Positions 1 through 27,434 of a DNA stretch of 48,487 nucleotides are shown here, one piece after another (within the stretch, counting starts at the first letter, position 1; each line of letters begins with the position of its first letter). The position numbers and the translations under genes were made by a program. The DNA is from Candidatus Moranbacteria bacterium RIFCSPHIGHO2_01_FULL_55_24 (GTDB lineage: Bacteria; Patescibacteriota; Minisyncoccia; Moranbacterales; UBA1568), in NCBI GenBank assembly GCA_001786575.1, contig MFRW01000004.1, positions 1 through 48,487 of the forward strand. The letters run 5' to 3'. Below the pieces are notes generated by a model. It saw only the letters and a program-made list of their open reading frames with translations. It searched no databases and was not told where the DNA came from.

Positions 1-1121
1 ATAGAGAAGTAAAACCCCAAAATGACGAGTAATCCACCGATTATCCAAAGAAAATGTTCCACGTGGAACATTTTTGGATAAAGATCCTTCATGTTCCACG
101 TGGAACATTGTTTGACTGACCCAAATGTTCCACGTGGAACATTTAATAATTGATTCTGATGTTCCACGTGGAACATTTGATACCATAAATAGCTTATTGA
201 GACTATAAGCGCTATCCACGCACCCTTTGAAAAGCTCAAGAAAAAGACAGCCAGTATCAGAATAAGGCTCAAAATGTTCCACGTGGAACATTTTGTGAGA
301 AATTGTCTTAATGTTCCACGTGGAACATTGTTTGACTGACCCAGATGTTCCACGTGGAACATGGATTTAGTAAGAAAGAAGAGTAATATTACTAAACCGA
401 GAAAGCCTCCTAATATATTCGGATGAAGGAAAAGTCCGTATGGACGCAACATAAATCCTTCATTTAAAGCAATTTTAGCTATTCCAGGATCTGTCCAATA
501 AAAGACTGATTCCCCAAAAATGCTTAATCCAAGCGAAAATCCGGTTATAATTTGGAAAATACCGATGATGCTATTCACCAGAGCTAGGAGAAATAGAGTA
601 TAAAAAGCCCCTTTCATAATGTTCCACGTGGAACATTTTGTGAGAAATTGTCTCAATGTTCCACGTGGAACATTGTTTGACTGACCCAGATGTTCCACGT
701 GGAACATTTTACTATCAATAGTTTTGATCAGGAAAAAGGCAAAAAAGAGTGTACAGGCCTGTATAAGTCTCAAAATGGCATAAAATCCGAGTATCTTATT
801 TTCAGCAAAGAATATGGTAGCTCCAGACAGGGCAATAAAGGCTAGAAGAGCATAAAAGAGTCTCTCATGTTCCACGTGGAACATCTTTTCCCTGTATATT
901 GACAATAACTGTATTTTATTGTTTAATATAAATAGGACAAGAAAACTGGCGAAAAATAGGTCAAAAAGATAGATCGAGACGTCCAGGTATTCGTTATAGC
1001 CAGAAGACAGAGGATTGAAGACAGCAAGAACAATCTGGATGTTCAGAAAGGCTGTAGCGATGAACAGCCAGAAAGAGAGTTTTTCAAACGTTTTAAGAAG
1101 GGGAGAGTCAAGTAATTTCAT
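1..1121 (-). CDS. O-antigen ligase/Wzy-like polytopic membrane protein (3' end outside window) carrying in-frame parS arrays; absent from the ORF track
   Basis: Hand translation from ATG at 1121 (MKLLDSPLLKTFEKLSFWLF...) is open to the window edge (373 codons). About 9 hydrophobic segments and family-type motifs IIGIFQ, SLGLSIFGE..PGIAK, RPYGLFLHPNILGGF and LSFSKGAWIAL, in the same order as the paralog at 18279-19574. Minus-strand TATAAT at 1147-1152. Confidence 0.9.
   Translation of the reverse strand, partial: MKLLDSPLLKTFEKLSFWLFIATAFLNIQIVLAVFNPLSSGYNEYLDVSIYLFDLFFASFLVLFILNNKIQLLSIYREKMFHVEHERLFYALLAFIALSGATIFFAENKILGFYAILRLIQACTLFFAFFLIKTIDSKMFHVEHLGQSNNVPRGTLRQFLTKCSTWNIMKGAFYTLFLLALVNSIIGIFQIITGFSLGLSIFGESVFYWTDPGIAKIALNEGFMLRPYGLFLHPNILGGFLGLVILLFFLTKSMFHVEHLGQSNNVPRGTLRQFLTKCSTWNILSLILILAVFFLSFSKGAWIALIVSISYLWYQMFHVEHQNQLLNVPRGTFGSVKQCSTWNMKDLYPKMFHVEHFLWIIGGLLVILGFYFS
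54..884. repeat. parS: parS (ParB-binding centromere) array: 11 perfect copies of TGTTCCACGTGGAACA
   Basis: 16-bp cores start at 55, 92, 126, 160, 275, 312, 346, 620, 657, 691 and 868. All extend to the 18-bp palindrome ATGTTCCACGTGGAACAT and match the canonical bacterial parS consensus. About 24-26 kb from dnaA/oriC. Confidence 0.93.
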
Positions 1122-15879: not shown

Positions 15880-17019
15880 ATGAAGAAGGTCTTTTACGGA
15901 TCATTGACGCTTCTAGTACTGACGCTCATTTTCCTGGGAGCGTACAATTTCGCATTCAAGAACAACTCCAACAGTCCGGTAGCCGAGACCGGCAAGAACG
16001 AGGCGGTTATCGTTCCGGAAGCCGGCGAGGACTCCGTCGCAGTTTCGCTGGTGAAGAACCCTATCAATGAGCCCCTCTTGGGAGCAGTCATGGGAGGAGA
16101 CGAGAAGGTCTACTACTACTCATTCGATGATAAGGCTCTGAAGAAAGCGACGCTCGAAGGCAAGGACAAATCCGTTCTCCTAAGCAACCTCCCGGGAGAA
16201 CCGTCTCGTATCGTCTGGTCTCCGAAGCGTGATAAGGCTCTTTTGAGCATCAAGCTCGACGGACGGAACATCTGGCACACGGCCGATCTTCAGACTAAGA
16301 GCCTAGTCGCGCTCAAGCCGGAAGTGACCCGGGTCGCCTGGACCAATCTCGGGGACAAGATTTTCTATCTCTATACCGATCCGAAAAACTCCGAGCGCTC
16401 GCTCAACATCGCGAATCCCGACGGAAGCAGCTGGAAAGAGCTTGCCAAACTGGGAGCCCGCGATGCCTACCTCTCGGCTGTCCCGCAGAGCAGTTCCGTC
16501 TCTTTCTGGAGTCGTCCGAATGCGCTGGAAAAGACCGTGCTCGAGAGCGTTTCGAGCGATGGTACCGGCCGCAAAACCCTTTTCGGGGACGGTTACGGCA
16601 GCGACTATCTCTGGTCTCCGGACGGAGAGAAGATCGTCATGAGCGGGAGCTCGGAGAAGGGCGGGAATACGCTTTCCGTCAGCCTGCTCAACAAGAACGG
16701 CGGCGAGGCGCGCTCCTTGGCGCTGCCTACCCTCGTTTCGAAAATCGTCTGGTCTCGCGACAGCGCTTTCCTCTACTATGCCCTCCCTGGCGGACTTCCG
16801 GAAAACGCGACGCTTCCGAATGACTACTTCGAGAAATCCCTCGCCACGAAAGACACCTTCTGGAAAATGGATATCGAGACCGGCAAAAAGACGCGTCTCC
16901 TCGAGCCGAAGGATGTGGCCCAGAGTTTCGACAGTACTGATCTGTTCCTGTCGTCCGAAGAAGATGCTCTCTTCTTTACCGATCGGCAATCCGGCCGCCT
17001 CCATCGCATCGATCTCTAG
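15880..17019 (+). CDS. Membrane-anchored TolB/WD40-like beta-propeller protein
   Basis: N-terminal TM; repeated WSP/WSR/DG blade motifs. Confidence 0.75.
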   Translation: MKKVFYGSLTLLVLTLIFLGAYNFAFKNNSNSPVAETGKNEAVIVPEAGEDSVAVSLVKNPINEPLLGAVMGGDEKVYYYSFDDKALKKATLEGKDKSVLLSNLPGEPSRIVWSPKRDKALLSIKLDGRNIWHTADLQTKSLVALKPEVTRVAWTNLGDKIFYLYTDPKNSERSLNIANPDGSSWKELAKLGARDAYLSAVPQSSSVSFWSRPNALEKTVLESVSSDGTGRKTLFGDGYGSDYLWSPDGEKIVMSGSSEKGGNTLSVSLLNKNGGEARSLALPTLVSKIVWSRDSAFLYYALPGGLPENATLPNDYFEKSLATKDTFWKMDIETGKKTRLLEPKDVAQSFDSTDLFLSSEEDALFFTDRQSGRLHRIDL

Positions 17020-18272
17020 CCTCTTTTCTTCTCTCCAACGAAAGTCCGCTCCTCCGTAAGGGGGAGTTTTTGTTGCACAAGAAAAGAAAGAAGGACGAGC
17101 ATCCAGAAGAGGAATGCCAGGTCATTCCGGAAATATGGCGTATCGAGAAGGCCGAAGAGGAGAAGTGCTCCCCATAAGGAGAGAGCTAGACTCGCAAGAT
17201 CCTTTCTTTCCGGAAGGATGCGCCAAAGAAGGAAAAGACTTCTTCCGATAACGAGGAGAAATCCGCTTAGCCCGATTATCCCGGTACCAAACCAAAAAGC
17301 GAGTATCAGATTATGCGGCTCCGGGACTGCCCACTCGAGGTACGGTGGGAAATGACGCTGATACTCCAGATATGTTTCCTGGAAGCGTCCGACGCCGATT
17401 CCGAAGAAAGGGGAGTCGCCCAAAATCGCAAAAGAGGCCTTCCAGATCATCTCCCGTGACGAAAGCGACGAGCGTTCGTCGAAATGGACCAGGGATTGCC
17501 ACTTTCCTGTACCGCTTTCAGAGAAAAAGAAGGCTGTTGTCGAGACCGCCGCCAAAAGAAGGGCGGCAGCCAGGGTTTTGCGGAGCCCAGAAGCGCTGCT
17601 CCTAGAGGAGAGGAGCCAAACGAAAGCACCCGAGAGGGCGGCCCAGGCGCCGTAGGAGCGGGTTTCTATGAATGGAACGAGAAGGAGTAAGGCTGCGAGA
17701 AAAAAGAGCCAGGAGAGCCCTTTTTTGGTGCGGAAATAACGCGTCCCGAAAGCCGAAGCGATGAGGATACCGGACAAGAGAAGAATGGCGAGGAAGTTCG
17801 GAGAACTGTAGGGGAAAGCCAGGCGCTGATCGAAGGTATAGATGCCTTCCCGGATGCCGAGAAAAGCGGCTACAGCCACGAAAAGCGTCCCGAGAAGCCA
17901 GAAAATGAGCAATCTTTCGGCGGAGAGCTCCTTCCGCATGCTGATACCTGCGAAAAAGAGAAAAGCTGGGAAAAAGAACCAGGATTTCAGCATACCGAGA
18001 CCGGTGAGCGAGAACGGGTTCACGAAGAAAGAGAGAGCAGCCCCTGAAAGTGCCAGGAACACCCCGAGGGAAAGCAGCTTATCAGCAGAAAAAAGAGAAG
18101 AAAGCTTTTCGTCAGATACAAGGAACCTCCACAAGGCATAACCGAAAACCGGGATACTCGCTATTTCCAGGGAGTAGAGCGGCAGAGAGCCTAAAAGGAT
18201 CTTTTCTTGTGCAAGCAGGAGGAAAAGAAAGGGGAGCCCGAAGAGAAGATTTGAGAAGGAAGGGTGCGTCAT
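17016..18272 (-). CDS. O-antigen ligase family protein
   Basis: Polytopic; RLAFPYSSPNFLA, TRSYGAW, SR..IW, GIGVG and PHNL motifs. Confidence 0.88.
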   Translation of the reverse strand: MTHPSFSNLLFGLPFLFLLLAQEKILLGSLPLYSLEIASIPVFGYALWRFLVSDEKLSSLFSADKLLSLGVFLALSGAALSFFVNPFSLTGLGMLKSWFFFPAFLFFAGISMRKELSAERLLIFWLLGTLFVAVAAFLGIREGIYTFDQRLAFPYSSPNFLAILLLSGILIASAFGTRYFRTKKGLSWLFFLAALLLLVPFIETRSYGAWAALSGAFVWLLSSRSSASGLRKTLAAALLLAAVSTTAFFFSESGTGKWQSLVHFDERSSLSSREMIWKASFAILGDSPFFGIGVGRFQETYLEYQRHFPPYLEWAVPEPHNLILAFWFGTGIIGLSGFLLVIGRSLFLLWRILPERKDLASLALSLWGALLLFGLLDTPYFRNDLAFLFWMLVLLSFLVQQKLPLTEERTFVGEKKRG

Positions 18273-18278
18273 ACGCCT

Positions 18279-19574
18279 TCATGATAGCCGAAGCGCCTCG
18301 CTTTTGCGAGGGGAAACTCTTCCTTTTCCGCTTCTCATGAGTGCTGCAAGAACGAGAAGGTACAACGGGAACACATGGACCGAGTATATCGGGGTTTCAA
18401 AGAAGGAATGTACGAGAAAGGCTGTGAGCGCTCCGAGGTATCCCAAAACAAGAGGGTCTTTCCTCACCTTATAGCTCCCGAAAATCGCCATGAGCGGCAA
18501 GAGAATGAAAGCGAGGAGACCGATAAAACCGAGTTCGAGAGTGAGATCCAGAAAGAGGTTATGGGCATAGATCGGCTCGCGATAGGTCGCTTCAGGTTTG
18601 ACCGCAAGCGGATAATTGCCGAGCCCCGTGCCGAGAAGCGGCCTCTCTCGGATATGCTCGAGAGCCTCGCCCCAAAGCAGCAGACGGGCTCGGTTCGATC
18701 CTTCTTCGAGCGAAAAGCTCTCGAAGAAACGCGTACCCACCGGTGTCGTGGAAAATATTCCGAGAAAAGCCAGTACGCCGAGAAAGCAAATGAGAAACGT
18801 TCGTAAAGAAAAATGTTCTCGCATACGAAAAAATCCGAGCAAAGTGCCTCCACCGAACAAAGCGAGGTATCCGCCTCGGGAAAAAGCGAGAAGGACCGCG
18901 AGTGTCAGAATGCCGAAGACGATTGCCCAGAAAGTTTTCCGGTTTTCCATAAATATCCCGAGCGAAAGAAAAGCCGATATAGCCATGAAGAGAGAAAAGA
19001 GATGCGGGTCGGGGAAAAACGCCGTAGCGCGCATAAGGGTCTCCCCGGAAACATTCACGAGAAGGCTCGGGTACGTTGCGACTGCCGAAGCGAAATTCTC
19101 ACCGAGAAAGAAGGGGAGCAAAGTATTCGTCCAAAACCGGAAAAGTGTCTCTACCCCGACAATGAACTGGAGGAAGAATTGGAAAATCCCGATGCAGGCC
19201 GCTACAAAAGCGCCTAAGACAACGCCTTTGGCAAGCCTCATCCGCACATATTTTTCCTCGGCTACATCCCAAAGAATCGGAAAAAGGAGAAGGAAATTCG
19301 CAAGGAAAGAAGCTTTCCGGAAAGCCCATCCCGGCTCGGAAGCCCAAAACATCGACAGGAAACTGAACGCCGCGAAGAAAAGAAGTATGGAAAAAAGGAA
19401 TGGGGAAGGAAGATTAAGGGATCGCTTTGTGAGGCCCGAAGCGAGCCAGGCCAGAAAGAGAAGAGGGATCGCCACCCGGATCAAAGCGAAGTCGATACCA
19501 GAAGCCGGGGAGAGGGCGAACTGGAAAGGAAGCAAGAGAAAAATCCAAAAAAGCGCTGTTTCAAACATACTCAC
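18279..19574 (-). CDS. O-antigen ligase family protein
   Basis: RATAFFPDPH, FSRGG, GTGLGNY and AHNLFL..ELG motifs. Confidence 0.9.
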   Translation of the reverse strand: MSMFETALFWIFLLLPFQFALSPASGIDFALIRVAIPLLFLAWLASGLTKRSLNLPSPFLFSILLFFAAFSFLSMFWASEPGWAFRKASFLANFLLLFPILWDVAEEKYVRMRLAKGVVLGAFVAACIGIFQFFLQFIVGVETLFRFWTNTLLPFFLGENFASAVATYPSLLVNVSGETLMRATAFFPDPHLFSLFMAISAFLSLGIFMENRKTFWAIVFGILTLAVLLAFSRGGYLALFGGGTLLGFFRMREHFSLRTFLICFLGVLAFLGIFSTTPVGTRFFESFSLEEGSNRARLLLWGEALEHIRERPLLGTGLGNYPLAVKPEATYREPIYAHNLFLDLTLELGFIGLLAFILLPLMAIFGSYKVRKDPLVLGYLGALTAFLVHSFFETPIYSVHVFPLYLLVLAALMRSGKGRVSPRKSEALRLS

Positions 19575-21204: not shown

Positions 21205-22659
21205 TTAAGAGATCGGGTTCTCGACTGCCGCAGGAGCAGTCTCTTTGCTTGAAAAAATCATGCGGAGCTCCTCATAAGAGATAGCTTGCGTAATCCAGAG
21301 GCTGCCTATATAGATAGTGACTCCGGAGATCCCAGCGAGAAAGAACGAGTACGGTTCCAAGAAAAAGAGCGAGACCCCCATCGCTCCGGAAGCGAAAAGA
21401 ATCCTGCCGATATGCTCGAATGACGGCCGGTACTTCACATGCTGGAAAACGAGGAATCCGGTAAGCGTAATGACCAGAAGCTCTGTCGCGACCGAAGTGA
21501 AGGCGGCGCCGATGAAAGAATAAGTGGGGATGAGGAAAAGATTCAGGCTGATATTGAATACGGCAGCAAAGAAAAGCGCTACCATGAGCTTGCGCTGGGC
21601 GTTGCTCACGATGAGAAGCATATTGAAATAATGGCCGAAGAAGATGCATCCGAGAGCGAAGATAAGGATGCGCAGCACCGGCACGGATGCCTGGAAGCCC
21701 TCGCCGCTGACGATCTGGACGATATCCGGAGCCAAGAACCAGGTACCGACAATAAGAGGCGCTACGATAAGGAAAAAGACTTTGAATGTCTTGTCGGCGA
21801 TTTCATTGAAACGCTTGCGGTCGGTATAGATCGAGCGTGAAAGAAGAGGCAGAATCAATCCGGCAAGCATTGCCGGGAAGAAGATGAGATTCTCCATGAT
21901 CTTGTAGGCGACATTGTAGATGCCGACATCCGTATTCGACTGCATGAGCGAGAGGAGGATGGTGTCTAACTTGAAATACGCGAAGGTGATGATAGCTGTC
22001 GCTCCCATAGGAAGCGATTCCTTGAGAAATTCTTTCCAGTAGGAAAAATCGAGCGCGAGAGAGAACTTTACATAACGCCGGCTCCACCAGAAGACGAGGA
22101 TAGCATTGAAGGAAAGCGAGACGAGAAGCGTCGCCGCAATCGGGAGAAATCCGAGATCCTCCCGCACGATAAACACCACGAGCGCTACCTGGAGGAATTT
22201 GCCGCAGAACTCGATCATCGCCACTTTATCCATGGCCAGATACTTCTGGAAGATGCCATTGAGCACCAGGGAAAGGGTGGAGAAAAGGACGGCCGCAGCG
22301 GCTATGAGGATTCCCCACTCCTGATCTTCCGGGTAGCGGAAAACGAGAAGTGCGAGCGGTGCGATGAGGATAAGCGCAAGCGAAGAAAGCAGGCGGAGCG
22401 CTACGATGTTTCCGAGAATCTTCTTCTCTTCGGCTCCTTCCCGGGATATTTCCCGAGCAGTTACCGGACCGAGACCCAGATCAGCGATAGCGGAGAAGAA
22501 ACCGAAGAACGCGAGGATCGTCGCATACTTTCCGAAGCCGTCCGGACCGAGGTAGCCGGTGATCAGCCGGATAGAGAGAAGCGAGAGTGCGACCGTCGAA
22601 AACACCTTGAAGAAAGAATTCAAGACGACATTATAGGCAATCTTCCGCGCAATCGCCAT
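21205..22659 (-). CDS. Wzx-type polysaccharide flippase (MOP family)
   Basis: About 14 TM; YLGP..FG.Y, D.ILL and VGIYNVAYK motifs. Confidence 0.9.
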   Translation of the reverse strand: MAIARKIAYNVVLNSFFKVFSTVALSLLSIRLITGYLGPDGFGKYATILAFFGFFSAIADLGLGPVTAREISREGAEEKKILGNIVALRLLSSLALILIAPLALLVFRYPEDQEWGILIAAAAVLFSTLSLVLNGIFQKYLAMDKVAMIEFCGKFLQVALVVFIVREDLGFLPIAATLLVSLSFNAILVFWWSRRYVKFSLALDFSYWKEFLKESLPMGATAIITFAYFKLDTILLSLMQSNTDVGIYNVAYKIMENLIFFPAMLAGLILPLLSRSIYTDRKRFNEIADKTFKVFFLIVAPLIVGTWFLAPDIVQIVSGEGFQASVPVLRILIFALGCIFFGHYFNMLLIVSNAQRKLMVALFFAAVFNISLNLFLIPTYSFIGAAFTSVATELLVITLTGFLVFQHVKYRPSFEHIGRILFASGAMGVSLFFLEPYSFFLAGISGVTIYIGSLWITQAISYEELRMIFSSKETAPAAVENPIS

Positions 22660-22686
22660 ACGAAAAGAAAATAAAAAAATCTGCGT

Positions 22687-23154
22687 TTAATCCTTGAGGC
22701 GCACGAGCACCTTGCGTTCCTCTCCTTTGCCGACACTTTCGGTGAGAATCCGGTCATTCTTCGCGAGAATCGTGTGGACAACTTTGCGTTCGAAAGCCTG
22801 CATAGGCCGGAGAGTGACGGAAAGTCCGGTCTCAATCGCTTCTTGAGCGGCCTTTTCCGCTTCTGATTCCAAGAATCCGCGCTTTTCGGCGAGATAACCG
22901 TTCACATCCACCACGAGAGAAACTCTTTCCCCGAGAGCTTTGCGGCAGAGGAGGCGGAGTATATGTTGGAGCGCCGCCAGATTCATCCCATGCTGGCCGA
23001 TGAGGAAATTCTGATCCGTATGGAGGGAAATGTCGATAAAGAAGCTTTCTGGATCATTCTCCTCTTCGCGTACCGAAATCGTTCCAGAAAAGCCGAGCTT
23101 TTCGACGAGCGTCTCGGCAATCTGCTGCAAAGTGGCAAGAGGAGTATTTTCCAT
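22687..23154 (-). CDS. jag: Jag/KhpB (EloR) KH plus R3H RNA-binding protein
   Basis: LIGQHG.NL.ALQ and M..FERKVVH motifs; follows yidC. Confidence 0.9.
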   Translation of the reverse strand: MENTPLATLQQIAETLVEKLGFSGTISVREEENDPESFFIDISLHTDQNFLIGQHGMNLAALQHILRLLCRKALGERVSLVVDVNGYLAEKRGFLESEAEKAAQEAIETGLSVTLRPMQAFERKVVHTILAKNDRILTESVGKGEERKVLVRLKD

Positions 23155-23168
23155 AAGCTTTCGGCGGA

Positions 23169-23900
23169 TTAAGCCTTCTTAAGAGCGAAGATGTACTTCT
23201 GCTGGACAATCATGAAGAGGGTGGAGAAGAGCCAGTAGAGGGAAAGGGCTGCCGGGAAGGTTACCCCGATAAAGAAGGTGAGTCCGGGACCCAAGTAGAG
23301 CATCTGCTTATTCATTATAGCCGCAAAGTCCGGTTGGTCGGAAGGGCTGGCAGTAGCGCTGGAAGGGGCGGGCAATGAATGGAGCAGCATTTTGGTCTGG
23401 AAATATTGGGCAATGGACGAGAGGAACGCGAGCACGTAATTCGGCCGCGAAAGATCGACAAAATGGAGGAAGAGGTGATTGATGGCCCCAGGGTTAGCCA
23501 CAAAGGAATAGAGATCGTTCGGATTGACCATAAATCCCGCTTGGGAGATGGAAATAATGACCCGATAAATAGCGATCAGAAAGACGATCTGGACGAGGAG
23601 CGGGAGACAGCCTGAAAAAGGATTGGTTTTTTCGGCTTTATAGAGCTCTAGAAGGGCCTTTGTCTGTTCTTCCTTGTTCGTCTTGTGCTTCGCTTGGATC
23701 TCCTTCATTTTCGGCTGCAGTTCCTGCATTTTCTTCTGGGATTCGATCTGCTTCTTGGAAAGAGGGAGCATCACGAGCTTCAAAAGGAGGGTGGTCAGGA
23801 TGATGGCGATTCCGAAATCGGCTCCCGGAACGACATTGTAAAAGAAAATGAGGGCGTTATAGAGCGGATCGTAGATAAAGGTATGGAAAAGTGTGGCCAT
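23169..23900 (-). CDS. yidC: Membrane protein insertase YidC (short form)
   Basis: GIAII, LQPKMKEIQ, NPFSGCLP and LYW motifs. Confidence 0.95.
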   Translation of the reverse strand: MATLFHTFIYDPLYNALIFFYNVVPGADFGIAIILTTLLLKLVMLPLSKKQIESQKKMQELQPKMKEIQAKHKTNKEEQTKALLELYKAEKTNPFSGCLPLLVQIVFLIAIYRVIISISQAGFMVNPNDLYSFVANPGAINHLFLHFVDLSRPNYVLAFLSSIAQYFQTKMLLHSLPAPSSATASPSDQPDFAAIMNKQMLYLGPGLTFFIGVTFPAALSLYWLFSTLFMIVQQKYIFALKKA

Positions 23901-23904
23901 ATGC

Positions 23905-24246
23905 TTATTTTTTGTCTTTTAGACTCCTCTTAATGTTAAGAATAAAGCTTTGTAATTCCTCTTTTTCGATGTTTTTTCCCTTCTTTAAGCTAAAAAATAC
24001 GATGTCATACCCTTTTGGGAGTTCTCCGTAGCTTTCCTCGATAAAGGCACTCAACTGCCGGCGCAAGCGGTTTCTTTGGGTAGCCAAGGGGAAATGCTTC
24101 TTACTGAAAGAAAAGCCTATCCGAAGCGAGTCTGTGCTGTTTTTGGCTATTTTACAGGCTATTTCTCTAAAAAAAAGGGGACTTCCGGAACGAAATACCC
24201 TCTCAAAGTCCTCTTTTTTCCTTATCCGAAGGCTTTTTTTCAGCAT
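23905..24246 (-). CDS. rnpA: RNase P protein component
   Basis: RIRK.EDF..VF, RIGFSFSKK and RNRLRR motifs. Confidence 0.93.
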   Translation of the reverse strand: MLKKSLRIRKKEDFERVFRSGSPLFFREIACKIAKNSTDSLRIGFSFSKKHFPLATQRNRLRRQLSAFIEESYGELPKGYDIVFFSLKKGKNIEKEELQSFILNIKRSLKDKK

Positions 24247-24253
24247 ATGGATG

Positions 24254-24391
24254 CTATTCGGAAAGTTTTTTCCTTCCTTTTTGGCGCCTGTTGGTGATCA
24301 CGCGCTTACCGCCCGGGGTACTCATACGCTTCAGAAAGCCGTGGCGTCTGGCCCGCTTTCTCGTTTTCGGCTGATACGTCCTCTTGCTCAT
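24254..24391 (-). CDS. rpmH: 50S ribosomal protein L34 (below the ORF-track length cutoff)
   Basis: Hand translation: [45 protein letters not shown]. Confidence 0.97.
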
Positions 24392-24469
24392 AGAACCACT
24401 CTCAATAACTTAAAGTCTTTGTAAAAAAGTTTCTTTAGTGTATCAGAAAGCCAAGGAAAGTCAATAATA

Positions 24470-24552
24470 GGGGTATAAATCCACTTATCCACCCGTTATG
24501 CACTTTTTAACCATTTTTCAGCCTCGCTCATCCTTTTTTAGCGTGATATAAT
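24470..24552 (+). promoter_or_regulatory. dnaA upstream region with DnaA-box-like sites and an extended -10
   Basis: TTATCCACC (24485-24493), TTATGCACT (24496-24504), TGATATAAT (24544-24552). Confidence 0.65.
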
Positions 24553-24589
24553 GACATTCAATCTTCGCTATTCTCTGAAGCAGGAGCTT

Positions 24590-26008
24590 ATGACTAATGA
24601 GGAACTTTGGAAGGCTGTCTTAGGCCAAATAGAGCTTTCTTTGTCGAAAGCGAATTTTATTACTTGGTTCAAGAATACTTCTCTGGTGGATAACCAGAAT
24701 GGCTTGGTAACCATCGGCGTACCGAATGGGTTTGCGAAAGAATGGCTTGAGAATAAGTATAATATGTACATTCTCAAAGCTTTGAAGAGTCTTGATCCGT
24801 CTGTCCAAGAAATCCGTTGCGCTATCACGCTCCAGAATAAGCCGGGCGCTGCTCCGATCTCTGTGGATTCGGTTCGCAACGTAGATGCGGCGATACCCCG
24901 CGAACAAAGCGGATTTGTGCGGAAGAAAATTATTGAAAAGCCGGTATTCAGCAATACGCCGGGTTTGAATAACCAGGTTTTTCATGAAACAAACTTAAAC
25001 TCCCGTTACACCTTCGAGAATTTTATCGTGGCTGAAAATAACGAACTTGCCCGCGCTGCTTGTTATGCTGTTTCCCAGAATCTCGGCATGGTGTACAACC
25101 CGCTCTTCATTTATGGCGGGGTGGGGCTCGGGAAAACGCATCTCCTCCAATCGATCGGGAATGAAGTGATGAAGGAACATCCGGAAAAGCGCATAAAATA
25201 CATCACTTCGGAACGTTTCACTACAGAGCTCGTCGACTCGATCAAGAACCAGAAAATAGACCTTTTCAAGGAATACTACCAGCAAATGGACCTTCTGATT
25301 ATCGATGACGTGCAGTTCCTCTCGGGCCGCGAAAAGACCCAGAACGAATTTTTCCATATATTCAATGCTCTCTATCAGATAAATAAGCAGATTGTCATAT
25401 CCAGCGATCGGCCTCCGAAAGCCATCGCTACCCTCGAAGAACGCCTGCGTTCGCGCTTCGAAGGAGGGATGATCACTGATATCAGCCGTCCGAGCCTCGA
25501 AACAAGGATTGCGATTCTTCAATCAAAAATCCTTGAAAAAGGCTTTATTATAGATGAAATCACCCTGAAATACATCGCTGAAAAGGTAAATCAGAATATC
25601 CGGGAATTGGAAGGCGCTTTAAACCGGATAATCGCTTATTGCGAATTCCATAAACTTCCGCCGAGTCTTGAAAACACCCAGAAGATCCTCGCCGAACTCA
25701 TCGAGGATAACAAGAAAAACATCCATTCTGATGATGTTTTCCGGGTAATCAGCGATTTTTATGGTGTCGCTAAAGAAGAGTTGATCAAAAAAGGGCGGAA
25801 AAAAGAGATTTCTCACCCGCGCCAAGTAATGATGTATATTCTCCGAAACGAACTCCAAATACCTTTTTCTTCTATAGGAGAGCTTCTGGGAGGTAGAGAT
25901 CATACGACCGCGCTTCATGCATTTGAGAAGATTGAAACACAAAAAGAAAACAATTCACGGTTGAAAGAGGAACTTGATACGTTGCGAGAACGCCTCTATT
26001 ATAGTTAA
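24590..26008 (+). CDS. dnaA: Chromosomal replication initiator DnaA
   Basis: YNPLFIYGGVGLGKTHL, IDDVQF, RL.SRF and GRDHTT motifs; ATG 24590 has AGGAG upstream. Confidence 0.98.
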   Translation: MTNEELWKAVLGQIELSLSKANFITWFKNTSLVDNQNGLVTIGVPNGFAKEWLENKYNMYILKALKSLDPSVQEIRCAITLQNKPGAAPISVDSVRNVDAAIPREQSGFVRKKIIEKPVFSNTPGLNNQVFHETNLNSRYTFENFIVAENNELARAACYAVSQNLGMVYNPLFIYGGVGLGKTHLLQSIGNEVMKEHPEKRIKYITSERFTTELVDSIKNQKIDLFKEYYQQMDLLIIDDVQFLSGREKTQNEFFHIFNALYQINKQIVISSDRPPKAIATLEERLRSRFEGGMITDISRPSLETRIAILQSKILEKGFIIDEITLKYIAEKVNQNIRELEGALNRIIAYCEFHKLPPSLENTQKILAELIEDNKKNIHSDDVFRVISDFYGVAKEELIKKGRKKEISHPRQVMMYILRNELQIPFSSIGELLGGRDHTTALHAFEKIETQKENNSRLKEELDTLRERLYYS

Positions 26009-26273
26009 ATATTGTTGATAAATCTGTATAAACCCTCTTTTTCTGTGGGTAGCCCTAGGATAACAACGCCTTTAATGTGGATTATTCGAGCGAAGAAATA
26101 ATAAGAGTAAGTTTTCCACTAAGTTTGGTGAGGAAGTGGGAGAAATATAAAACTTTTTTGTATAAAAAATACTTTATCTAAAAGAAAAACTTCACTTATC
26201 ACACTATCCACAGTCTTAATCATAATAATAAATCTTTAAATATATATAATTATATTAAAGATTACAGAAACCT
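26009..26273. other. oriC: oriC (dnaA-dnaN intergenic): DnaA boxes, DnaA-trio-like tract and AT-rich unwinding element
   Basis: Near-consensus boxes at 26013-26021, 26076-26084, 26112-26120 and 26204-26212, followed by TAATCATAATAATAA and a TA-rich tract. Confidence 0.85.
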
Positions 26274-27434
26274 ATGGAACTTATCTGTACACAAGAGAAT
26301 CTTTCACTCGCTCTCTCATATCTGGACCGAATCGCCGGGAAACAGAGTTCGCTCCCGATCTTGAGTAATCTTCTTCTGGAGACTGAAAAAGGGAGACTGA
26401 AGATTTCTGCGACAAACCTAGAAATCGGGGTAGTAGTTTATGTAGGGGCGAAAATAGAAAGTGATGGAAAGTTCACTGTACCAGCGAAAATCTTTGCTCA
26501 TTTTGTGCATAATTTGCCACCTGGAGAGGTTTTGAATATCAAAGTGGTACAGCAGCACCTTTTTATTGCAAGCGGCGGCTACACGATGAAAATAAAAGGT
26601 TTGGATGGAAAGGATTTCCCTATCATTCCGCAATACAAAAACGACTATCCCTTCTCTCTCCCAGCTCAAGATGTAAAACAAGCGCTTCAAAGGCTTCTTT
26701 TCTGTGTGAGTACGAATGAAGCGCGTATCGAATTGACTGGTGTGTATGTTTCCTTTGAGGAAGGAGCGCTCCATCTCGCTGCAACGGATAGTTTCCGGCT
26801 TGCTGAAGAGATTATCCCTTTCACTGATCAGAGTTCGGGGTATAAGCAGTTTCTCTCTGAAAATACCTCGCTTATCATCCCAAGCGCCACTCTCCAAGAA
26901 CTCCTTCGGGTGATTACTCCCGAAACGATGAATATCAAGCTTGCACTCGAGGAAAATCAGCTTTTCTTCGAGGTAGATAATGTGCAGATCGTTTCACGTA
27001 TCATCAGCGGGAAGTATCCTGACTATCAGCAGATCATCCCGAAAAAATTCACCCTCCAAGCGGTCATAGAGAAAGATCTTTTCCTCCGTTCTTTGAAGTT
27101 AGCAAGCTCCCTTTCCTCTTATACATCGGGCGAGATAGCACTTATCTTCGATCCGGAACAGAAACAATGCACGCTCGTCTCTCAATCGAAAGAAATCGGC
27201 GAGAATACGAGTATTATCCCTTTGGAGGTGCAAACCGGAACGGAGCCGCTCACTCTCGTTTTCAATCCGCGCTACGTGATAGAGGGGATAAACGCGCTTC
27301 ATTCGGACAAACTACTCTTCCTCGCGAATACGAATACCTCTCCGGTAGCACTCCGTGAATTCAACGAAGAGAAGAAAGAGGAGGATGGAAAATATCTCTA
27401 TATCATGATGCCGATCCGGAAAGAATATGCGTAA
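26274..27434 (+). CDS. dnaN: DNA polymerase III beta clamp
   Basis: LPILSN, ATNLE, ATDSFRL, G.YPDY and YIMMP motifs. Confidence 0.97.
   Translation: MELICTQENLSLALSYLDRIAGKQSSLPILSNLLLETEKGRLKISATNLEIGVVVYVGAKIESDGKFTVPAKIFAHFVHNLPPGEVLNIKVVQQHLFIASGGYTMKIKGLDGKDFPIIPQYKNDYPFSLPAQDVKQALQRLLFCVSTNEARIELTGVYVSFEEGALHLAATDSFRLAEEIIPFTDQSSGYKQFLSENTSLIIPSATLQELLRVITPETMNIKLALEENQLFFEVDNVQIVSRIISGKYPDYQQIIPKKFTLQAVIEKDLFLRSLKLASSLSSYTSGEIALIFDPEQKQCTLVSQSKEIGENTSIIPLEVQTGTEPLTLVFNPRYVIEGINALHSDKLLFLANTNTSPVALREFNEEKKEEDGKYLYIMMPIRKEYA

Follow-up and report, generated by a model that had tools for sequence, protein, structure and literature searches.

At the left edge of the stretch of DNA analysed here (the window: 48,487 nt of Candidatus Moranbacteria bacterium RIFCSPHIGHO2_01_FULL_55_24, genome G000, corresponding to contig C4:1-48487), we found what is probably a dual-coded chromosomal centromere, in which twelve in-frame parS sites for ParB loading lie in the loops on one side (side B) of a functional gene for a WaaL-like membrane protein. 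Eleven of the sites are in the window and the twelfth is on contig C5. An original prediction, made from the letters of the window, had proposed such a dense centromere within the tolerant loops of a gene under coding constraint. This core of the proposal is supported by a complete gene of 514 codons, a ParA-ParB pair, core codons under purifying selection, and orthologues in congeners and other families carrying 2-18 in-frame sites. In the following, G and L numbers denote the genomes and loci compared.

parS sites, partition genes and origin

The 16-mer TGTTCCACGTGGAACA occurs in 11 exact copies between positions 55 and 883 of the window, the number first reported, compared to a chance expectation of 0.01, and none of 100 shuffled sequences reached 11 copies. 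Every site of the window is enclosed by an 18-nt palindrome (ATGTTCCACGTGGAACAT), and the 12 exact copies in the genome match the consensus for chromosomal parS (TGTTNCACGTGNAACA), as had been stated. A genome-wide map identified these 12 sites as the sole parS of the 789,426-bp, 11-contig genome, with none outside the gene and no further one even when two mismatches were allowed. The same 16-mer forms parS2 and parS3 of Pseudomonas aeruginosa, the highest-affinity ParB sites of that organism (PMC4368675).

The sites of the window are read in three frames, giving the peptides MFHVEH, NVPRGT, and CSTWN already listed in the prediction. Counted from the start of the gene and without an assigned strand, parS 1 (868-883, MFHVEH) falls in loop B1 between transmembrane (TM) helices TM2 and TM3. 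Loop B2 (TM4-TM5) holds parS 2 (691-706, MFHVEH), 3 (657-672, NVPRGT), and 4 (620-635, CSTWN), and the same order of peptides recurs in loop B3 (TM6-TM7) with parS 5 (346-361), 6 (312-327), and 7 (275-290). In loop B4 (TM8-TM9), parS 8 (160-175, MFHVEH), 9 (126-141, NVPRGT), and 10 (92-107, CSTWN) are followed by parS 11 (55-70, again MFHVEH), and parS 12 (C5:315-330, VPRGT), outside the window, belongs to loop B5. Close spacings between sites in this gene are always 34 or 37 nt. Three sites together form a 94-nt module, whose copy at 614-707 is 98% identical to the reference copy at 269-362 in spite of lying in another loop of the protein, while a third, more diverged copy at 49-142 is 88% identical to the reference. 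A scan of positions 1-1500 for terminators and promoters gave about as many as expected by chance (2 compared to 1.6 and 4 compared to 3.5), and the idea that the palindromes are intragenic terminators was dropped for this reason.

The cognate partition genes are located on contig C8, where parA adjoins parB. ParA (271 aa) matches AAA_31 with 223 bits, and the 314-aa ParB has all three domains (ParB_N, 113 bits; HTH_ParB, 132 bits; ParB_C, 40.5 bits) and a GERR motif visible in the translation; the genome thus has the ParB whose absence would have spoken against a centromere. Of 50 congeners (G000 counted), 38 yielded a ParB orthologue. A further protein of G000, outside the window (C4:71350-72312, L002 1390-2352; 320 aa), contains ParB_N (59.9 bits) without the ParB helix-turn-helix (HTH) or C-terminal domain.

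The distance of about 25 kb to oriC given in the prediction is correct for the Bac_DnaA domain of dnaA (24995-25480, plus strand; approximately 24 kb from the array), but the figure is that of dnaA and not of a mapped oriC. The window contains 19 DnaA-box-like 9-mers with at most one mismatch, compared to 5.9 expected, with clusters to either side of dnaA (22.3-24.7 and 26.0-26.5 kb; 22365-26512). The minimum of the cumulative GC skew lies nearer to 16-17 kb than to dnaA. In relatives with dnaA and the array on one contig, the two are 29 (G011), 9 (G003), 37 (G053), and 17 kb (G006) apart.

Reading frame and assembly of the host gene

All sites of the window lie within one minus-strand open reading frame (ORF), extending over positions 3-1196 from a TTG or 3-1121 from an ATG, that leaves the window at its left edge, which is also the contig end. 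The unbroken frame from the ATG at 1121, as predicted, comprises the first 373 of 514 codons of the gene, and the remainder with the stop codon was found on C5:63-486. C5:1-62 and C4:1-62 are exact reverse complements, the unique part of this overlap being found nowhere else, and C5 extends the frame by 140 codons to a stop at C5:484-486. This leftward extension also supplied the C-terminal Wzy_C match and the twelfth site. The joined ORF has 514 codons and ends in a stop, compared to 24-33 stops in each of the remaining five frames. The analytic probability that such a frame is open by chance is 6e-12, and none of 20000 shuffles in which the sites were held fixed stayed open.

Contigs built independently from the public runs X1, X2, and X3, which stem from two studies, reach approximately 700-2700 nt beyond window position 1 and reproduce pieces of the array, as would not be expected of an assembly artefact. 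The X1 and X2 pieces that cover the array have no mismatches, two X3 pieces have one differing base each, and a loose end among the run-built contigs matches the sequence after the C5 site; as the best-matching run may be the source sample, the independence of this check is partial. No RNA run was among those listed as containing the locus.

With a GC content of 0.377 (0.397 at third codon positions), the gene differs from its paralogues in the window (0.51-0.53 and 0.57-0.60, respectively) and from the contigs (0.52-0.56). Among 98 related loci, 88 have the gene at a higher AT content than its flanks (on average by 5 and by up to 18.6 percentage points), and non-coding arrays are likewise 6-15 points below their flanks in GC. 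This AT-richness of the locus could reflect selection on the DNA in the vicinity of parS, or lateral acquisition.

Family, fold and topology of the host protein

The C5 part of the gene matches Pfam Wzy_C (PF04932) at positions 53-149 (E 1.3e-5), with 25.5 bits compared to a cut-off of 31.7; both the contig break and the inserts interrupt the domain. Homologues score 70.8 (L045) and 69.5 bits (L122) when free of parS, and 58.7 (L133) and 38.5 bits (L136) in other cases, while the site-rich orthologue L017 reaches 16.4 bits and stays below the cut-off. The family motifs noted in the prediction, RPYGLFLHPNILGGF and FSKGAW, are present in the window's ORF, and six residues (R226, Y228, H233, P234, N235, and S298) are invariant across 68 aligned homologues, with QPVHN conserved in the C-terminal part. 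A profile built on these 68 homologues matched no PDB sequence, and the NCBIfam models gave no match for the four proteins searched.

The AlphaFold2 (AF2) model of a parS-free congener homologue has 12 TM helices (predicted local distance difference test score (pLDDT) 84, predicted template modelling score (pTM) 0.87), and its top PDB match is WaaL (7TPG_B; E 3e-6, TM-score 0.58/0.64), followed by RodA (6PL6). For the 373 residues encoded in the window, AF2 yields nine confident TM helices (pLDDT 77, pTM 0.75), and the segments with pLDDT below 50 (139-145, 151-166, 258-263, and 327-352) coincide with the multi-site inserts between them; the lone site near residue 80 is in a block with a mean pLDDT of 58. 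The evidence of WaaL-family membership is good in the case of the orthologues and indirect for the split gene of the window.

By helix counting, the invariant residues and the QPVHN and DHYxWD motifs are all on side A of the predicted membrane protein, and all 12 sites fall in five loops of side B, opposite the conserved catalytic loops. The conserved loop of the WaaL family is periplasmic. Because the inserts are on the opposite face by helix parity, their loops should be cytoplasmic. Lysine and arginine counts in the parS-free homologue (7 per 45 residues compared to 10 per 143) are weakly informative and support this weakly. Mapping of 257 sites from 45 genes placed 236 in the five B loops or adjoining helix ends (one at the N-terminus) and left one ambiguous. 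The other 20 occupy one conserved spot in the outer loop A5, as NVSRGT or NVSRET, which is absent from the window's gene. This A5 site (TGTTTCACGTGGAACA or ...GAAACA) corresponds to position 338 of the reference L045, in the structured outer domain just before GxGxGQ, and was observed in L051, L052, L054-L057, L060, L061, L064, L065, L068, L077, and others.

Two tandem Wzy_C paralogues on the minus strand at 17016-19574 (67.9 and 76.3 bits) served as comparators and are, as predicted, free of parS and short-looped, with 5-7 vs. 29 aa in B2 and 9-14 vs. 25 aa in B3. B2, B3, and B5 were used for the loop comparison with homologues, since their B4 and A5 values are unreliable with our protein aligned as two fragments. 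The inserts of B2, B3, and B4 in the window's protein measure 29, 25, and 37 aa, compared to 3-6 aa in the model of the parS-free homologue and, for B2 and B3, 5-19 aa in the alignment with the paralogues.

Distribution among relatives

The arrangement occurs clade-wide in Candidatus Moranbacteria and in at least one further class within the phylum. Exact sites were found in 31 of 41 sampled relatives, with 1-17 tightly clustered copies per genome, and an orthologue of the gene (E ≤ 1e-10) is encoded in 31 of 50 genomes of the genus (G000 counted in both cases). Among 29 congener loci, 23 have all of their 6-18 sites within one ORF of 482-729 aa; the others comprise three loci split by a frameshift or in-frame stop, two bearing a sequence variant, and one parS-free paralogue. 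Altogether, 324 of the 337 perfect sites of these loci fall in the single best ORF, and for the 13 genomes common to both lists the site count of the locus equals the genome total, meaning that the gene holds every site. The window's own gene is intact, and a minority of relatives have a broken or absent copy. The frameshifts of L023 and L028 are located within parS clusters.

In other families of the order, 1-7 perfect sites are found in the ORF. A scan of 185,579 species genomes returned 570 relatives, of which the best 80 loci, as ranked with a query carrying parS-encoded peptides, were analysed: sites are present in 77, the ORF accommodates 599 of the 612 sites, and both catalytic motifs are retained in 69 ORFs. 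In an even sample of the phylum, exact sites were present in 32 of 151 genomes, mostly with 1-3 copies. All seven sites of a genome from another class (L133) and all three of G089, from another family of the phylum (L136), are within the ORF.

The other canonical form, TGTTTCACGTGAAACA, replaces all sites in the same gene in L037 and L044 (G056 and G015), and genes with this form throughout, encoding MFHVKQ and VSRET, were also found in L112, L116, L120, L124, L128, and L133. As every site of these genes has the same form, the sites of one genome appear to change together. In a further family, two of three sites of L137 (G074:C10:15500-19500) are in frame (NVSRET and DVSRET) in a 762-aa ORF that, by sequence reading, resembles a class I aminoacyl-tRNA synthetase.

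Selection on the two coding layers

Pairwise Nei-Gojobori estimates of the ratio of nonsynonymous to synonymous substitution (dN/dS) from 12 orthologue pairs separate the two layers. Core codons, with dN/dS values of 0.13-0.37 in all 12 pairs (dS 0.23-1.4), are under purifying selection at the protein level, in agreement with the predicted coding constraint. Most of the spacers with data evolve near neutrally, the codons between close sites having dN/dS values of 0.57-0.9 in four of seven pairs and 0.27, 0.15, and 0 in the other three. The parS codons are the most static part of the gene at synonymous positions, which are 5-50 times more conserved than in the rest of it (dS 0.02-0.05 in the five genus pairs that share many sites). 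Frame usage among 731 sites in 94 distinct genes is 165, 263, and 303; since parS is kept identical in all three frames, the constraint acts on the DNA and not on the peptide.

In the 94 genes with coding arrays, which come from related genomes, the distance between neighbours (at most 70 nt apart) is a multiple of three (3n) in 9 of 302 pairs, leaving a remainder of one in 197 and of two in 96, and merging similar spacers gives 9 of 258 distinct clusters. Non-coding arrays, in contrast, have 9 of 28 spacings of 3n, close to one third (Fisher p = 1.8e-6 vs. coding). Four of the nine coding exceptions are in two broken genes (L028 and L042) and three in one close pair. As neighbouring sites are almost never 3n apart, the slip of one unit would frameshift the gene and be purged, stabilising the array. 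The sequences therefore suggest a frame lock, in which losing one repeat unit would disrupt the gene.

Growth by simple tandem duplication would predict a bias toward 3n, the opposite of what was observed. Spacer pairs with at least 85% identity are found within genes in 22 of 170 comparisons vs. 5 of 3847 between genomes, and occur in 12 of 91 genes. Judging from these similarities, whole modules appear to have been copied between loops instead.

Weighing of alternative explanations

Several observations weigh against a functional tie between centromere and gene, or weaken the evidence for it. Six congeners (G002, G003, G006, G013, G014, and G021) carry 3-16 perfect sites without a long ORF, and non-coding arrays (2-16 sites overall) are found in several other lineages, among them L005-L007 from other families and, elsewhere in the phylum, L132, L134, and L135 from family f75. 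The gene is dispensable for the array. With 0.6-1.0 Mb, the genomes of the six congeners are of similar size, so that embedding is not forced by a lack of space, and the predicted role of the arrangement as a compact solution for a reduced genome is not supported. The ORF-less arrays share their syntenic place between a TSP3-repeat protein and tRNA/rbfA genes, and a tblastn search of them with the ligase proteins gave matches via the parS-encoded peptides, with no gene remnant detectable. Twelve of the 50 congeners gave no ParB orthologue; as metagenome-assembled genomes, they may have an assembly gap here. Among those without a ParB hit are G002, G003, and G006 with non-coding arrays and G015, G041, and G051 with arrays in an ORF. 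Several ParB-less congeners keep 8-17 perfect sites, and one of the genomes (G003) is rated 100% complete, pointing to gaps in the assemblies or to a different reader of the sites. On the protein side, the pieces of the window's own gene miss the Pfam threshold for Wzy_C, the 373-aa window part having no meaningful Pfam match and its truncated model no PDB match (Foldseek at chance level, best E 3.5), and the putative cytoplasmic placement of the insert loops is derived from helix parity and family knowledge, with weak support from the lysine and arginine counts. Furthermore, the ranking of the best 80 loci favoured site-bearing genes, the genomes behind the spacing statistics are not independent, and selection on the gene may have produced the frame lock as a side effect, without the lock being the cause of the association.

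The most probable of the alternatives is neutral hitch-hiking, in which the centromere was seeded by chance in a non-essential, origin-proximal, and loop-tolerant gene, the ORF brings no benefit, and the spacing is a passive filter. We consider this unlikely, even if six congeners and other families retain arrays in the same syntenic position with no ORF. A single parS site within a gene is also nothing unusual elsewhere: in P. aeruginosa PAO1, 9 of 10 sites are intragenic (PMC4368675). What hitch-hiking does not readily accommodate is that the tie to this single gene family reappears in different families and in two or more classes, that core dS is 0.23 in the closest pair and 0.6-1.4 in more distant ones, that non-coding arrays tend toward wider spacings, and that the depletion of 3n spacings reveals frame selection shaping the array.

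The two remaining alternatives question the sites or the gene itself. The palindromes might be a mobile or REP/MITE-like (repetitive extragenic palindromic or miniature inverted-repeat transposable element) repeat, or a selected peptide repeat, instead of ParB sites. The recurrent copying of 94-nt modules between loops at 98% identity and the A/T-rich flanks that extend the palindrome are in line with this, yet the 16-mer is exactly canonical parS, occurs nowhere else in the genome, and forms a single origin-proximal locus in every genome examined. Its identity in all three frames indicates a DNA-level and not a peptide constraint, and some genomes have all copies in the other canonical variant, rendering such a repeat very improbable. 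Even less credible is a decaying pseudogene that is open by chance, or an assembly artefact. While the array is located at the end of a contig and interrupts assembly with short words, and three congener copies have a frameshift or in-frame stop, the minute probability of an open frame, the low dN/dS of the core, both catalytic motifs in one ORF in 69 of the best 80 public loci, and the array pieces recovered in runs of two studies all contradict this explanation.

Proposed mechanism

For the dual-coded centromere, we propose that ParB-CTP loads at the sites of the array and acts jointly with ParA to segregate the origin region. The gene would tolerate the palindrome since the latter is free of stop codons in every frame and yields short, mildly positive peptides, which disordered cytoplasmic loops may accept. 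Modules could spread between loops via recombination anchored on the identical sites, while slippage between adjacent perfect 16-18-nt direct repeats would remove or add one unit. A change by a unit other than 3n would cause a frameshift and be purged by selection on the protein, and protein-level selection might thereby stabilise an otherwise deletion-prone repeat array. That the reading frame serves as such a stabiliser is a tentative proposal, with the odds somewhat against it, and the same applies to the bolder additional possibility of transertion, in which co-translational membrane insertion of the 12-TM product would tether the ParB-parS complex to the membrane. If true, this tether would provide an origin anchor for tiny cells without a dedicated polar protein.

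Comparison with known systems

The parS palindrome, its origin-proximal position, and the cognate ParA and three-domain ParB are shared with the chromosomal ParABS systems of P. aeruginosa, Bacillus subtilis, and Caulobacter. Unlike in these systems, all sites (12, and up to 18 in relatives) are within one ORF of 1.5-2.2 kb, where they are in frame, on one face of the protein, conserved lineage-wide, and at non-3n spacing. Known chromosomal parS clusters, with 4 sites in Pseudomonas and approximately 20 in Streptomyces or Myxococcus, extend across many genes and many kb. A dozen identical, dense sites of the ParB family at a spacing of 34-50 bp are more reminiscent of iterated plasmid centromeres such as sopC of the F plasmid, which consists of 12 tandem 43-bp repeats. 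Those are non-coding tandem repeats, whereas the array described here is chromosomal, translated, and interrupted by TM-coding segments. Going by its sequence, the locus is predicted to work like a chromosomal ParABS centromere with the density of an iterated plasmid centromere. With WaaL/Wzy_C (PDB 7TPG), the parS-free homologue shares the 12 TM helices of its model, and the aligned homologues share the invariant Arg, His, Pro, and Asn in a large outer loop. The window's protein differs in that its side-B, putatively cytoplasmic loops are enlarged by parS-encoded inserts.

A literature search that covered neither supplements nor subscription journals returned nothing on parS in Patescibacteria, CPR (candidate phyla radiation) bacteria, or Moranbacteria, on parS within genes for O-antigen ligases, or on MFHVEH, CSTWN, or VPRGT peptides as parS footprints. 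While single intragenic sites were already known, an entire centromere array translated in one conserved membrane-protein gene and following a codon-phase rule is new as far as the searched literature shows. The pattern spans hundreds of uncultured Patescibacteria genomes and constitutes a large natural sample in which DNA-level and protein-level codes overlap, each layer having a clean signature. It suggests a general route by which selection on an ORF could protect a recombination-prone repeat array. With one 16-mer, one ParB, and one gene, it also offers an entry point to chromosome segregation in the CPR, about which little is known. For genome annotation, the odd peptides MFHVEH, VPRGT, and CSTWN can be taken as footprints of a DNA signal.

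Neighbouring genes

Beside the array, a 207-aa ORF on the plus strand (1433-2056) is located between the genes for tRNA-Ala (1285-1358) and tRNA-Arg (2069-2141) and has a sub-threshold match to HTH_38 (E 0.009). It is followed by rbfA at 2114-2488.

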